This document shows, one piece after another, positions 39,371 to 44,461 of a stretch of DNA of 54,914 nt. The stretch is taken from the NCBI GenBank assembly GCA_024224665.1, contig JAAENG010000424.1, forward strand, positions 1 through 54,914, written 5' to 3'. Below the pieces are notes generated by a model, which did no database searches, had not been told where the DNA came from, and worked only from the letters and a program-made list of their open reading frames with translations. Numbering within the stretch: the first letter of the stretch is position 1; the number at the start of each line of letters is the position of its first letter. Source of the stretch: Chloroflexota bacterium. Lineage in GTDB: Bacteria; Chloroflexota; Anaerolineae; J102. The translations under genes were made by a program, and so were the position numbers.

Positions 39371-40120
39371 ATGAACACAACCATATGCTACGGAGATCTA
39401 ACCTATCTTGAAATTCAAGAAAGGGCGCAATCAGGCTGGCTGGCCGTGATCCCCACAGGTTGTACGGAGCAGCAAGGGCCCCATCTTCCCGTCGATGCCG
39501 ATACATGGCTGGCAGAGCAGGTTTGTCTGAATGGTGCTGCAAGAGCTACGCAACAATTTGGTGTACAGTGCCTTGTTCTACCAACGTTGCCCTTTGGCCC
39601 CACCCCTGAACATCGGCACTATGGCAGCGGATTCATCGATATTCCCCAGATCCTGCACGAGAAGATATTAAGAGCGATGCTCGAATCATTGGCCACTCAA
39701 GGATTCAGCCGTCTGGTGATCTGGCGAGGATGTGGGCAACATGAATTGGCCGAAACGATACGAATCTTCAACGCTGCCTATGTCGGAACAGCTCGTGTCT
39801 TCCAACCTGATTTTCCTCATTACGGTATCTGGTGTCGCCATGCTGATCCCAATATTCCCGGTGGTCATGCCGACAGTTATATGACCTCATTGATGATGCA
39901 TCTGCGGCCCCAGGCCGTACGACTCGAACAGATTCGAAATCCACACAGCCTTCCTGTTGATTGGGAAGATCCCGATCTCGATTTTGCTCACCATTCTAAA
40001 ACCGGGGTGATCGGAGATCCTACCCATGCCAGTGCCGGGCTAGGTGCCAGATTGTGGGAGGATGTTCAAGATTCTGTGGCACAGACCTTGCGAGACATCG
40101 CGCAGTCACCCGTAATATGA
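39371..40120 (+). CDS. Creatininase-family amidohydrolase (creatininase / ArfB / MftE fold)
   Basis: VIPTGCTEQQGPHLPVDADT and a later GGHAD segment match the family metal-binding pattern. Confidence 0.7.
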   Translation: MNTTICYGDLTYLEIQERAQSGWLAVIPTGCTEQQGPHLPVDADTWLAEQVCLNGAARATQQFGVQCLVLPTLPFGPTPEHRHYGSGFIDIPQILHEKILRAMLESLATQGFSRLVIWRGCGQHELAETIRIFNAAYVGTARVFQPDFPHYGIWCRHADPNIPGGHADSYMTSLMMHLRPQAVRLEQIRNPHSLPVDWEDPDLDFAHHSKTGVIGDPTHASAGLGARLWEDVQDSVAQTLRDIAQSPVI

Positions 40121-40223
40121 GCCGGTAATTGCAACATTGATGTACATTTGAACTACAACTCGATCAGTCGGAGTCTTGTTTGATTGTCCAGAAAAAAGGT
40201 ATCCTGTTTGTGGAGGAATGCGC

Positions 40224-41114
40224 ATGATTATCAGAAAGGCTGTCATCACGGCAGCTGGCCGTAAACACCCCACACTACCGTTACAGATGCTGATGGATCG
40301 TGATGGTAGAGAGCGATCTGTGCTCGGTATCTTAGTCAAAGAAGTCATGAGCGCCGGGATCGAAGAGATTGCCGTCATCGTGCCGCCGGGGGAGGAATCC
40401 CGCTTTGCCAAAGTAGTCGGCAATGTAATGGCGCGTTTGCATTTTATCCCACAGCCCGAAGCGCTGGGCTATGGCCATGCGGTGTATTGCGCCAGTGGGT
40501 TTGTTGGAGACGAACCCTTTTTGCACCTGGTGGGCGATCATCTCTATGTGAGTGGCGATAACAGCAGTTGCGCCCGGCAGTTGGTTGAGGTGGCACAGGC
40601 TGAGTCCTGTGCGGTTTCAGCGGTACAACCTACCCGCGAGAGCTTGCTGCCCTACTTTGGTGCAGTCGGCGGCCGGCATCTGCCCAACCGCAAAGGTCTG
40701 TATCAAGTCGAGACCGTGATTGAAAAGCCAACCCCCACCGAGGCAGAATACCGCCTGCTGGTGTCTGGCCTTCGTGCCGGGCATTACCTGTGCTTTTTTG
40801 GCATGCACGCGCTCACGCCAACCGTGATGGAGATCCTGGCGAGGCAAGTGATGCATGCAGCGCATGCAGCGCATGCAGCGCATGCAGCGCACGCTATCAA
40901 CCCAATGCATTTATCCGGCGCTCTGTCTGAGCTGGCAAAGCGGGAGAAATATCTGGCCATGGAGCAGCAGTCGCGGCGCTACGATGTGGGTGTCAGATAC
41001 GGATTACTCACCGCCCAGATTGCGTTGGCGCTGGAAGGTGTTGACCGCGAACAAGTCTTGGTGCTGCTGCTCGAATTATTGGCACAGCGCCAGCTAGGTG
41101 CAGTAAGGGAATGA
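40224..41114 (+). CDS. GalU-like sugar-1-phosphate nucleotidyltransferase paralog with a degenerate G-x-G-T-R loop
   Basis: [17 protein letters not shown] occupies the position of KAVIPAAGLGTRFLPATK. The rest is colinear with GalU-type NTP-transferases. GGAGG lies 7 nt before ATG 40224. ATGA overlap with the next gene. Confidence 0.6.
40853..40892 (+). repeat. In-frame 9-bp tandem repeat (GCATGCAGC x4 plus a partial copy) encoding (HAA)n
   Basis: Four perfect copies fall at 40853-40888, each with an SphI-like GCATGC. The translation is [14 protein letters not shown]. Confidence 0.9.
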
Positions 41115-44100
41115 GTCCGGGCAGCCAGCTGGTTCAAATCATCGTTACAGATGACGTCAGTGAACGGAATCGGGCACTGGACGCTGTCTGCGAGTCGTTA
41201 TCGCTTGACGAATTGTTGATCGAGTGCGCAGAACTGGAATTGTTTCGACATGCCAGCGAGAATCTCTACGAACGCGTACGCGCCCTTTTCTTTCTCTATG
41301 CCATTCATCGCTTTCATCTACCAGGGCGTATAAATGAGCCGTCGGATTCGTCGCCGGCAGGGGGGCTGATACCTTACGATGGTTATACGGATCTTCTACA
41401 GCGTCGCTTTGAAGAGGCCATCCAGACATTTTTGAAGGTTCAGGCACAACATGGTCCCAGCGAGGGAATCTCCAGCGCCCTGGCTGAAGCCTACCACCAA
41501 CTTGGGTTCCAGACATTGGCCGATCAGGTGCGGCGCAGTGTGCGCTCGGTTCGTGGAAATCAATGGATGTTCCGCATTGGCCACCCCATGGATCAGCCTT
41601 TGCGCGTGCAGCCCGACCTGTTACGTCGCTCCAGTGGCGGACTCTTTCCCATTTTGCGCGAGGCAACGCCGGTGCGCATGGATCTCTCGCACAGCGCCTG
41701 GAGTGACATTTTCTTTTTAGGTATGGATTATCCAGAAGGCGCGCGTGTTCTCAATGTCTCGATTGATTTAGCCGTGCATGGACGCGATTCTGAACCCCGC
41801 CCGCCTGTCGAGGCCTATTTCCGGGTGATTGACGAACCGTTGTTACGATTGGTGAGTGTAGATTTAGAGACGGTGGCGGAGATCACCACTTTGGTCGAGC
41901 TCTACGATTATGCTCGGGACTACCTGGGTTTACTCAAAGCCGCGGTGATCGCTTCAGGCATCGTTCCCCCGGGCATGGAGGGTTCGGGCGAACGGCTACA
42001 TGGCCCTGGCGGTCTGCTATCACGGTTGGTCGGACCCGGCAAGGGAATCGAGTTGGTCAGCCGCGTCAACGGCATCCCCAAAGGTTCACGGCTGGCGGTG
42101 TCTACGAACCTGTTGGCATGCCTGATTTCCGGCTGTATGCGTGCCACCGGGCAGACGGCATCACTCACAGGGCCATTGGCTGAGTATGAACGGCGGATCG
42201 TGGCTGCTCGGGCGATTCTGGGCGAGTGGCTGGCCGGATCCGGCGGCGGTTGGCAAGATTCGGGAGGTGTCTGGCCCGATATGAAACTGATTACGGGAAT
42301 GCAGGCCGAGCCCGGTGATCCTGAATATGGCATCAGTCGGGGGCGGTTGTTACCGGCACACCATATTTTCAGCAAGGAGGAGATTTCACTGGAAACGCGC
42401 CAACGTTTACAAGATAGTTTGGTACTTGTCCATGGCGGTATGGCCCAAAATGTGGGCCCAATTCTGGAGCAGGTAACCGAGAAATACCTGCTGCGCTCAG
42501 AATCGGAATGGCTGGGGCGGCAGCATGCCTGTGCTATCCTCGATGAGGTTGTGGACCTGTTGCGCGCAGGGGATGTGAAGGGGATCGGCGATGCGACGAC
42601 TCGTAATTTCTTCGGACCGATTCAGACGATTATCCCAGGCGCCACCACACGCTACACCGAACTATTGATCGAGCGAGTGCGTGATGAATTTGGAGGGCAT
42701 TTTTGGGGGTTTTGGATGTTGGGTGGTGCATCGGGTGGTGGCATGGGTTTCATCTTCGATCCGGCGTTTCGAGATCAGGCCAAGGCACGTTTGCAGGTGA
42801 TCATGAGCCGAGCCAAACATCAGCTTGATAACGCTCTGCCCTTTGCCATGGAGCCCGTCGTCTACGATTTTGCCATCAATTCGCGTGGTACTTGGGCTGA
42901 TCTATTCTCTGACGATACTGCCTTAATGCCCGCAGGCTACTACACCTTGACGATTCCAGATCTCTTGCGCCGAAACCCGAACTCACTTTCGCCGGGCCGT
43001 CGCGCCGAACTGGATCGGTTTGGCGAGGCCAGCCGCACAGAACCGGAGCTGGCAGGTTTGGTGCCGACGCTCTTCAATCGCATCATGCCCAAGACGGGAC
43101 GCGTGCAGGCAGAAGGTAAGAGCCTGGAACTGCTTTTGGATGAATTGGGTTTCGACCGTATCCAGCACGACCGAATTCGCACCGATTTACGCAACGGCCG
43201 CATTGGTCTGTTGCAGAATCGCCTGCCCGCCAGCACCACCTTGCGTGATGTCAAGCAGGGTGATGTCTTCAAATACGACAGCTTGGTTGAGGATTCTGGG
43301 CTCCACAGCGCCGGGATGCAATACCTGGCAGCTGGGGTTGTGGCCGCCGTAACGTTGGCAGCTGGGGTTGGCAGCCGCTGGTCGGATGGCGCTGGTGTGG
43401 TCAAGGCGCTGAACCCTTTCTGCAAACTGGGTGGCAAACATCGCACTTTTGTGGAAATTCATCTGGCCAAGAGCCGGCGGGTAGGAGAACGATGTGGTGC
43501 CTGGCTACCCCACGTCTTCACAACCAGCTATCTTACCGATGATGCGATCCAGAGCTTCCTGACCGTTCACAACCAGTATCACTATCCCGGCCCTCTGATT
43601 TATTCTCCAGGCAGGGCTGTGGGACTTCGACTGATCCCAATGACACGAGATCTGCGATTTGCTTGGGAGGAAATGCCTCAACAACTGCTGGACGAGCGCC
43701 AACAGATGATGCGAGAAAGCCTGAATTCGGCGCTTATCAGTTGGGCGCAGAGCGAGGGTGAGGGCAATGATTACGTCGACAATGTCCCCATGCAATGTTT
43801 ACACCCGGTGGGCCATTGGTTTGAGATACCCAACATGCTCAAGAACGGTGTCTTGCGCGAGTTGCTGCAGGCGCGCCCACAACTCCAGGTACTCATGTTA
43901 CACAACATCGATGTGACGGGGGCAGACGTAGACCCGGAGCTGTTGGCCTGGCACTTGCAGTCAGGGGCGACGATGACGGTGGAAGTGATACGGCGGCGGG
44001 TGGAGGATCGAGGCGGAGGTCTGGCTCGGGCAGATGGACAGCTACGTCTGATCGAGGGCTTGGCCATGCCACGGGAAGAAGATGAATTCAACCTCTCCTA

Positions 44101-44461
44101 CTATAACTCCAACACCTTCTGGATTCATATCGACAAGCTGTTGGCGGTCTTCGGTCTCACACGCCCGGATCTTAGCGACGACGATCGTGTCAACGACGCG
44201 ATTCGCGCCATTAGTGCCCGCATGCCTACCTATATCACCCTTAAGGATGTGAAAAAACGCTGGGGCTATGGGCAAGAGGATATCTACCCTGTGGCACAGT
44301 TCGAAAAGCTATGGGGCGACATGACCTCTTTGCCGGAAGTGGATTGCCGTTATGTGGAGGTGCCAAGGCTGCGCGGGCAGAATCTCAAGGAGGTGAAGCA
44401 GTTGGATGGCTGGCTGCGCGATGGTTCGGCCGCGTATGTCGAGAGGGTGTGTGGGTGGTGA
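41111..44461 (+). CDS. Large multidomain protein: unknown N-terminal domain, fucokinase-like GHMP-kinase domain, and UDPGP-family NDP-sugar pyrophosphorylase domain
   Basis: [15 protein letters not shown]...[33 protein letters not shown] and [13 protein letters not shown] match GHMP/fucokinase-type motifs. [10 protein letters not shown] and [10 protein letters not shown] match UDPGP-type motifs. Confidence 0.65.

Follow-up and report, generated by a model that had tools for sequence, protein, structure and literature searches.

A conserved pair of bacterial genes encoding a predicted sugar kinase-pyrophosphorylase fusion and a GalU-like partner

Contig JAAENG010000424.1 of a Chloroflexota bacterium (assembly GCA_024224665.1; 54,914 nucleotides [nt], all of which was analyzed and is called the window here) encodes a protein of 1,116 amino acids (aa) whose gene overlaps that of a 296-aa homologue of GalU/YngB-type sugar-1-phosphate uridylyltransferases. 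The large protein combines an N-terminal helical domain, a GHMP-fold sugar kinase domain and a UDPGP-type pyrophosphorylase domain, and it retains most of the catalytic residues known from its relatives. The two genes form a conserved pair, and no other neighboring gene is conserved with them. Judging from sequence comparisons and a structural model of the large protein, the pair may encode a sugar-activation enzyme with two genes and three active sites that converts a sugar to a UDP-sugar, a proposal whose chances we put at about even.

The conserved unit consists of two genes

One genome per species was scanned, which yielded at least 597 carriers of the large protein, and the loci of the best 80 were compared. 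The small gene was seen in 72 of them; of the other eight loci, five end at contig edges and three truly lack the gene nearby. By tblastn, it is thus located directly upstream of the large gene in 72 of 75 evaluable genomes. In the reverse test, which took the small gene as the starting point and used metagenome contigs, the large gene is found immediately downstream in 64 of 69 evaluable loci. The two genes share an ATGA at positions 41111 to 41114, an overlap that is frequent among related pairs, and they are probably translationally coupled. The linkage of the GalU-like gene with the large gene, which an earlier note on this DNA had pointed out, is therefore a property of the family.

The earlier note had also placed in the same gene set a creatininase-family hydrolase and a GT39/ArnT-like glycosyltransferase. 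The window neighbors were searched by tblastn against 80 related loci, and the flanks of the pair (5 to 8 kb on either side) were examined at 160 related loci in all. Homologues of the creatininase gene, of the glycosyltransferase gene or of any other window neighbor are found at none of the 160, even in the nearest relative (73% identity). All-against-all clustering of the flanking open reading frames (ORFs), with strict as well as loose thresholds, finds each neighbor family in 6 of the 80 loci at most. Given the adjacency counts for the pair and the absence of the other neighbors, the conserved entity is the two-gene pair, and the creatininase and glycosyltransferase genes are chance neighbors. 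The pair and these two neighbors comprise the following features.

40213-40217, forward strand: GGAGG ribosome-binding site of the small gene, 6 nt ahead of its ATG at 40224 (read from the sequence)
40224-41114, forward strand: small subunit gene, encoding a 296-aa GalU/YngB-type sugar-1-phosphate uridylyltransferase homologue (profile matches; start chosen by the ribosome-binding site)
40853-40891, forward strand: perfect 9-bp tandem repeat GCATGCAGC, 4.3 copies, within the small gene, encoding an in-frame H-A-A repeat
41111-44461, forward strand: large subunit gene, 1,116 aa, whose ATG overlaps the TGA of the small gene
41111-41644, forward strand: N-terminal all-helical domain, aa 1 to ~178 of the large protein (AlphaFold2 model; no profile match)
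41645-42910, forward strand: GHMP-fold sugar kinase domain, aa ~179 to 600, nearest to the fucokinase half of FKP (profile, PDB and Foldseek matches)
42074-42106, forward strand: variant phosphate-binding loop I322-T332 of the kinase domain (alignment to FKP IPAGSGLGTSS)
42911-44458, forward strand: UDPGP-type (UGP/UAP/USP-like) pyrophosphorylase domain, aa ~601 to 1116 (PF01704, PDB UDP-glucose pyrophosphorylases, Foldseek, motifs)
37178-39355, forward strand: gene for a GT-C-type (PMT/ArnT-like) membrane glycosyltransferase (weak profile matches), outside the conserved unit
39371-40120, forward strand: gene for a creatininase-family hydrolase (PF02633, E = 6e-45), a same-strand neighbor outside the conserved unit

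The four same-strand ORFs, all of the quoted motifs, the ATGA overlap and the 296-aa length are present in the sequence as the earlier note had read them. The ORF of the small gene is open from a TTG at 40176, and the spacing of the ribosome-binding site makes ATG 40224 the best start.

Domain architecture of the large protein

An AlphaFold2 run with 30 sequences that are 69 to 76% identical gave an unusable model (predicted local distance difference test score [pLDDT], 55). Relatives at 30 to 55% identity were added for the final model, which has a pLDDT of 91.5 and a predicted template modeling (TM) score of 0.91. In a Foldseek search of the PDB, this model matches full-length FKP (9iit_A; E = 1.4e-19).

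The N-terminal domain consists of helices (H6-H155 in the model) and contains Arg-rich invariant stretches. Pfam scans of this domain, the kinase region and the segment between the kinase and pyrophosphorylase modules, at E values of up to 10, return nothing apart from UDPGP. The first ~185 aa, where no motif had been recognized initially, are thus a helical domain that still has no Pfam match.

The kinase domain is matched by the FKP model NF009948 (aa 185 to 568; E = 3e-18). Its score is 64.9 bits, against an equivalog cutoff of 721, and the match covers the kinase part alone. Sequence comparison with the PDB retrieves the entries 9iip and 5yys (E ~1e-9). In Foldseek searches, the domain shows the two-lobed GHMP fold and is closest to the kinase half of FKP (9iip; E = 2.9e-18; TM score on the target, 0.82) and to the heptose-7-phosphate kinase WcbL (4usk; TM score, 0.82). 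Together with the high-confidence model, these matches support the fucokinase-like GHMP assignment made at first reading.

In FKP, R592 is the transition-state Arg and D762 the general base, with E751 also named; W599, D601, T602 and Q761 contact fucose; and the glycine loop (residues 712 to 720) contains the Mg-binding S719 (PMC11982464). In the HMMER alignment to 9iip, FKP residues R592, W599, D601, E751, Q761, D762 and S719 correspond to R189, W197, D199, E372, Q382, D383 and S331 of the large protein, so that both motif I (R189, W197 and D199) and the general-base region (E372, Q382 and D383) are present. All of the mapped residues are invariant in the family alignment. The only named residue outside the loop glycines that differs is T602, replaced by I200. 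Motif II has an unusual form, GSRLAVS, in which A712, G715 and G717 of FKP are replaced by K324, R327 and A329, respectively, while the Mg-binding S331 is kept. A candidate for motif III, the glycine-rich segment at aa 538 to 547, is conserved and lies inside the NF009948 match. The earlier note had called motif II degenerate. However, the variant loop is found in 30 of 30 aligned relatives and does not vary from phylum to phylum, and the remaining catalytic residues of the FKP kinase are all retained. The invariance of the loop across the family argues that it is a derived, selected family signature rather than a product of decay.

The C-terminal module matches PF01704 (UDPGP) with 41.9 bits in the full protein and 46 bits as an isolated domain (cutoff, 22). 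It is similar in sequence to the UDP-glucose pyrophosphorylases (UGPases) 8c0b and 2i5k in the PDB (E = 1e-11 to 1e-9) and in structure to AGX1/2, AfUAP1 and the yeast, human and plant UGP enzymes (Foldseek E = 4e-15 to 8e-13 over 430 to 500 columns; TM score on the target, 0.52 to 0.63). These profile, sequence and fold matches confirm the initial assignment to the UDPGP type. The module contains the nucleotide-binding (NB) loop LAAGVGSRW (749 to 757), K765, PVGH902, HN932-I-D934, GGG968-970, YYNSN and R1086-x-R1088-x4-K1093, and these motifs are conserved in every clade examined. PVGH902, HN932-I-D934 and GGG968-970 align to UGPases; the alignment from the NB loop to K765 is collinear but weak. 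K1093 is invariant in all clades, and the divergent relative P0157 reads RRKRFFPIK at this site. When the PDB was searched with the last 80 aa of the protein, chance matches only were returned and no alignment of the catalytic-Lys motif. The K1093 segment resembles the UGPase motif PRSRFLPVK, and K1093 may be the catalytic Lys, equivalent to K434 of LmUSP.

The NB loop is found ~95 to 125 residues from the N terminus in UGPases and at aa 749 to 757 in the large protein. Therefore, the segment of aa ~600 to 735, previously described as a linker, is probably the N-terminal helical subdomain of the UDPGP fold. Of the four-region layout proposed earlier, the N-terminal region, the kinase and the UDPGP module stand, and the linker probably belongs to the last of these.

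The small subunit

The small protein matches the NTP_transferase domain (PF00483; E = 7e-8) and the galU model TIGR01099 (E = 1e-22; 80.9 bits, below the equivalog cutoff of 326.8). The profile of its family aligns end to end (residues 5 to 283) with the Bacillus subtilis UGPase YngB (7o2n; E = 1e-32). Residues Q78 and G83 of the uracil site, D106 of the Mg site and E168-K169-P170 are invariant in the family, and R253 and D255 are conserved. The family lacks the GalU-specific insert, has an added invariant segment of its own and carries Thr or Ser in place of the PATK Lys. An attempt to view the system as a split FKP, with the small gene encoding the FKP N-terminal domain, was rejected, as the small-family profile matches GalU, YngB and RmlA and no FKP structure at an E value of 1e-3.

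Where GalU has GxGTR, the small family has the signature TAAG-x-x-Q-R-x-LPLQ, in which Q-R aligns with T-R of GLGTR. The Gln is kept in 72 of 73 sequences and the Arg in 67 (92%). The window copy reads AAGRKHPTL (G-R-K-H-P), the sole H-P among the 73; the Arg is missing from five more sequences. The loss of the catalytic Arg noted at first reading is thus real for the window copy and does not extend to the family, and a pseudoenzyme partner as a family feature finds no support. In Escherichia coli GalU, the T20M/R21H replacement, which distinguishes GalF, lowers the specific activity ~500-fold (PMC4643126). Because the window copy has H-P at these positions, it is by analogy probably a weak, GalF-like catalyst, which would not be the norm for its family.

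The H-A-A repeat of the window protein is missing in all 72 relatives, which suggests that the 9-bp repeat encoding it arose by recent slippage. The unique change from Q-R to H-P and this repeat are located in the same gene copy.

Distribution and conservation

When grouped at 90% identity, relatives of the large protein make up more than 8,000 clusters. The best 120 relatives listed are 1,104 to 1,166 aa long, with query coverage of 99 to 100%. The best 80 genome carriers, with proteins 62 to 73% identical to that of the window, belong to Chloroflexota, Verrucomicrobiota, Planctomycetota, Acidobacteriota, Bacteroidota/Rhodothermales, Armatimonadota and Myxococcota and include one Moduliflexus metagenome-assembled genome. 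Identities range from 59 to 76% over at least 8 bacterial phyla: among the 81 sequences compared, they are 70 to 76% within phyla and 65 to 69% between them, with a minimum of 59%, a level that in our judgment would be expected for core informational proteins. In 63 of 78 cases, a sequence and its nearest neighbor come from one phylum. This count and the higher identity within phyla led to the rejection of horizontal transfer as the source of the high identity, and they point instead to mainly vertical descent, with some transfer, under strong purifying selection across all of the ~1,100 residues.

Existing labels on the relatives are limited to "UTP--glucose-1-phosphate uridylyltransferase" and "hypothetical protein." Pfam and NCBIfam contain no model specific to this architecture, and a literature search for kinase-UDPGP fusions found no description, only FKP-type enzymes. 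This agrees with the earlier statement that no enzyme of this architecture has been characterized; all of the component folds are already known. Among the carriers are lineages abundant in soil, sludge and water (Anaerolineae, Verrucomicrobiota, Phycisphaerae and Acidobacteriota), and identification of the substrate would fill a gap in the nucleotide-sugar metabolism of several poorly cultured phyla.

Divergent clades

A wider search of 1.8 billion representatives gave 2,727 matches. Divergent clades at 30 to 35% identity share the plan of a helical N-terminal domain followed by GHMP and UDPGP domains. They have the P-loop GSGLAVS, Ala or Gly at the position of Trp197 and no GalU-like partner. 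In P0146 (2,318 aa) and in P0164 and P0271 (2,939 to 3,096 aa), this core is combined with N-terminal hydrophobic segments and a ROK kinase domain, and one of these proteins also contains an IMPase-family phosphatase domain. At locus L167, which belongs with these giant proteins, the neighboring gene encodes a 7,976-aa protein with HAD and Glycoamylase domains. In other members, the related genes are adjacent: a ROK gene is located immediately downstream of the large-protein homologue in locus L162, and genes for a beta-PGM-family HAD protein and a GmhA-like SIS protein are found immediately upstream in L163. NDP-heptose synthesis employs an isomerase or 6-kinase, a 1-kinase, a phosphatase and a nucleotidyltransferase, and the contexts of the divergent clades point to sugar-phosphate chemistry with a similar logic.

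Three further members stand apart. P0144 from the oxymonad Blattamonas nauphoetae (1,292 aa) is a eukaryotic member, ~36% identical to the window protein and presumably acquired from bacteria; its UDPGP motifs look degenerate (NB loop LASRVCSGW; KGASLA for GGG). The gene for P0157 (locus L161) is surrounded by six radical-SAM genes, one of them B12 binding and HpnJ/PhpK-like, and by genes for a xylose isomerase-like TIM barrel and a GT2 protein, which looks like a sugar-modifying biosynthetic cluster. In Omnitrophota (locus L164), the gene for the 1,343-aa homologue P0134, which has no Pfam match and no GalU-like partner, overlaps by 4 nt an upstream gene for a 1,857-aa protein with UDP-glucose/GDP-mannose dehydrogenase domains and is followed by two unannotated genes.

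Predicted function and alternatives

In the proposed sugar-activation enzyme, the FKP-fucokinase-like GHMP domain would act as an anomeric kinase, phosphorylating C1 of a sugar with ring hydroxyls like those of beta-L-fucose. The UDPGP module on the same chain would convert the sugar-1-phosphate and UTP to a UDP-sugar and pyrophosphate. The small GalU/YngB-like protein presumably binds the large one and might serve as a second uridylyltransferase on the glucose-1-phosphate/UDP-glucose side or, as in the window, as a low-activity GalF-like subunit. For the main clade, a free sugar appears the favored substrate, rather than a sugar phosphate, because this clade keeps the sugar-stacking Trp of FKP and has no isomerase, phosphatase or ROK partners; neither the window flanks nor any of the 160 main-clade loci has linked genes for sugar-phosphate isomerases or phosphatases, which are seen only in divergent clades. 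With its substrate established, the pair could supply a one-pot kinase/uridylyltransferase for UDP-sugar synthesis. The invariant Arg-bearing GHMP P-loop and the GxxQR variant of GalU are natural experiments on two textbook motifs.

Several observations weigh against this proposal. Pfam GHMP_kinases_N does not match the kinase domain, whose P-loop lacks two of the three motif II glycines, and the loop Arg is missing from 6 of the 73 small subunits. The proposal also gives no reason why one kinase should need two modules of the uridylyltransferase type. The clustered flanks contain no gene for a sugar transporter, glycosidase or epimerase that goes with the pair, the identity between phyla is far above that usual for a salvage enzyme, and in other clades the related genes occur together with those for sugar-phosphate enzymes, suggesting a bisphosphate route.

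One extension of the proposal, which we regard as quite improbable, is a self-contained Leloir machine with internal cycling of UTP and pyrophosphate between the UDPGP domain and the GalU-like subunit and a GalT-like exchange as the result. The kinase would produce the sugar-1-phosphate, the UDPGP domain would uridylylate it and free pyrophosphate, and the bound GalU-like subunit would use the latter to split UDP-glucose into glucose-1-phosphate and UTP. Overall, this would amount to sugar + ATP + UDP-glucose -> UDP-sugar + glucose-1-phosphate + ADP. Such an exchange, if it takes place, would explain why there are three active sites, why the pairing is obligatory and why conservation is so extreme. 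Should the FKP-like pocket be a true guide to the substrate, the machine might in addition make a UDP-linked L-fucose-type sugar, which is not known from nature.

The bisphosphate route would be a de novo pathway with a logic like that of NDP-heptose synthesis: the GHMP domain would phosphorylate a sugar 6- or 7-phosphate at C1, a phosphatase encoded elsewhere would take off the distal phosphate, and the UDPGP domain would make the UDP-sugar; K324 and R327 near the P-loop would help to hold the doubly phosphorylated intermediate. This route appears rather unlikely for the main clade. It is consistent with the structural similarity to WcbL, which is as near as FKP in Foldseek, with the fusions to ROK kinase and IMPase-family domains in P0146 and P0164, which have the same architecture, and with the ROK gene in L162 and the HAD and SIS genes in L163. 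However, no such partner gene accompanies the main clade at any of the 160 loci, and the main clade keeps Trp197, which would stack on C4 to C6 of a 6-deoxy sugar in free form and which is replaced in the clades that do have such partners. Moreover, the clades with a sugar-phosphate context lack the P-loop Arg. Alternatively, the pair might be a regulatory or pseudoenzyme assembly that controls the UDP-glucose supply, with the kinase serving as a catalytically dead ligand sensor or with one or both nucleotidyltransferase modules inactive, a possibility to which we assign a low probability. Precedents exist in GalF/GalU, GMPPA/GMPPB and the large and small subunits of ADP-glucose pyrophosphorylase. 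The altered P-loop of the kinase would fit this picture, as would conservation across the whole surface, which suggests many protein contacts, and the absence of a T-R equivalent in the window small subunit, given the ~500-fold effect of the T-R mutation in GalU (PMC4643126). On the other hand, the general base, Mg-binding Ser, transition-state Arg and sugar contacts of the kinase and the recognizable UDPGP motifs are invariant, and the small-subunit Arg is kept in 92% of the relatives. Pseudoenzymes normally lose their catalytic residues.

The reading that goes back to the earlier note, in which the creatininase, the GT39-like transferase, the GalU-like protein and the fusion protein form one machine that processes an N-acylated sugar to serve glycosylation of the envelope, is very unlikely indeed. 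In the window, the genes are on the same strand with short gaps (15 nt between the glycosyltransferase and creatininase genes and ~100 nt from there to the small gene) and no convincing terminator between them; a scan of the locus for promoters and terminators gave results indistinguishable from those for shuffled sequence. Yet none of the 160 related loci has a creatininase or GT-C homologue in its flanks, and therefore the suggestions of an N-acylated substrate and of a role in envelope glycosylation lose their basis. Of the two family assignments themselves, that of the creatininase holds (PF02633), whereas the glycosyltransferase is recognized only weakly (PMT_2, 24.7 bits against a cutoff of 26.1; mannosyltransferase model NF052499, E = 2e-9).

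Other features of the window

The surrounding sequence is ordinary chromosome, with genes for PNPase and signal peptidases as well as panBC, dnaE and coaX. Two tandem genes on the reverse strand (33808-35058 and 35055-36410, with a 4-nt overlap) encode proteins of 415 and 450 aa, each with an NTP_transferase domain and a GlmU/GlgC-type left-handed beta-helix, which may form a heteromeric sugar-1-phosphate nucleotidyltransferase pair; they are located ~4 kb upstream of the conserved pair, on the opposite strand, and are unlinked to it elsewhere. DnaE, the DNA polymerase III alpha subunit (28406-33517, reverse strand; 1,703 aa), contains an intein with a LAGLIDADG homing endonuclease domain at aa ~800 to 1210. 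The genes at 1978-9252 (reverse strand) code for an alpha-amylase-family protein, two ABC permeases, a solute-binding protein and a LacI-type regulator and constitute a maltodextrin-type uptake cluster. In the product of the gene at 14242-16011 (forward strand), an AI-2E family transporter (aa 13 to 334) is joined to a C-terminal HAD phosphatase domain (aa 375 to 575), which is an unusual combination.

Comparison with known systems

A close parallel is provided by Bacteroides fragilis FKP and Arabidopsis FKGP, in which a GHMP anomeric kinase is likewise coupled to a sugar-1-phosphate nucleotidyltransferase; the zebrafish glucuronokinase/putative pyrophosphorylase provides another comparison of the FKGP type (PMC3938481). 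FKP is the best match of the kinase domain in both sequence and structure, and all of its catalytic residues and five of its six fucose contacts are shared (the exception being T602/I200). As the earlier note had correctly stated, the domain order is opposite and the pyrophosphorylase fold different: FKP has an N-terminal NTP-transferase domain with a beta-helix and a C-terminal kinase, whereas in the large protein the kinase precedes a domain of the UDPGP fold, and NF009948 matches the kinase part alone. The large protein further differs in the P-loop GSRLAVS, the extra helical N-terminal domain and the separately encoded GalU-type protein.

Plants and trypanosomatids carry out Isselbacher-type salvage with GHMP kinases and a separate USP (PMC6329318, PMC12584669). 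The chemistry predicted for the large protein, from sugar through sugar-1-phosphate to UDP-sugar, is the same, and so are the two folds. The Leloir-type exchange outlined above would be the Isselbacher idea realized within one complex (PMC6329318). Like USP, the large protein has the NB-loop Arg/Lys, and its conserved K1093 may be the catalytic Lys. It differs in being a single bacterial polypeptide with an obligatory GalU-like partner, in a conserved insertion of ~65 aa (aa ~836 to 901) and in ending ~23 residues past the conserved Lys, where UGP and USP enzymes carry a further C-terminal domain.

The NDP-heptose pathway (GmhA, HddA/WcbL, GmhB and HddC) also combines a GHMP 1-kinase, in WcbL a top structural neighbor of the large protein, with a small NTP_transferase protein, and the divergent clades have GmhA-like, HAD, ROK and IMPase partners. 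In contrast, the main clade has no isomerase or phosphatase partner, keeps the FKP Trp and uses a transferase of the UDPGP fold.

The small subunit resembles YngB from end to end and shares with YngB and GalU the uracil-site Gln and Gly, the Asp and the E-K-P motif, and in the window copy, H-P for T-R parallels the M-H of GalF (PMC4643126). Unlike GalU, its family has GxxQR for GxGTR, no GalU insert and Thr or Ser for the PATK Lys, and it is paired with a protein of ~1,100 aa.

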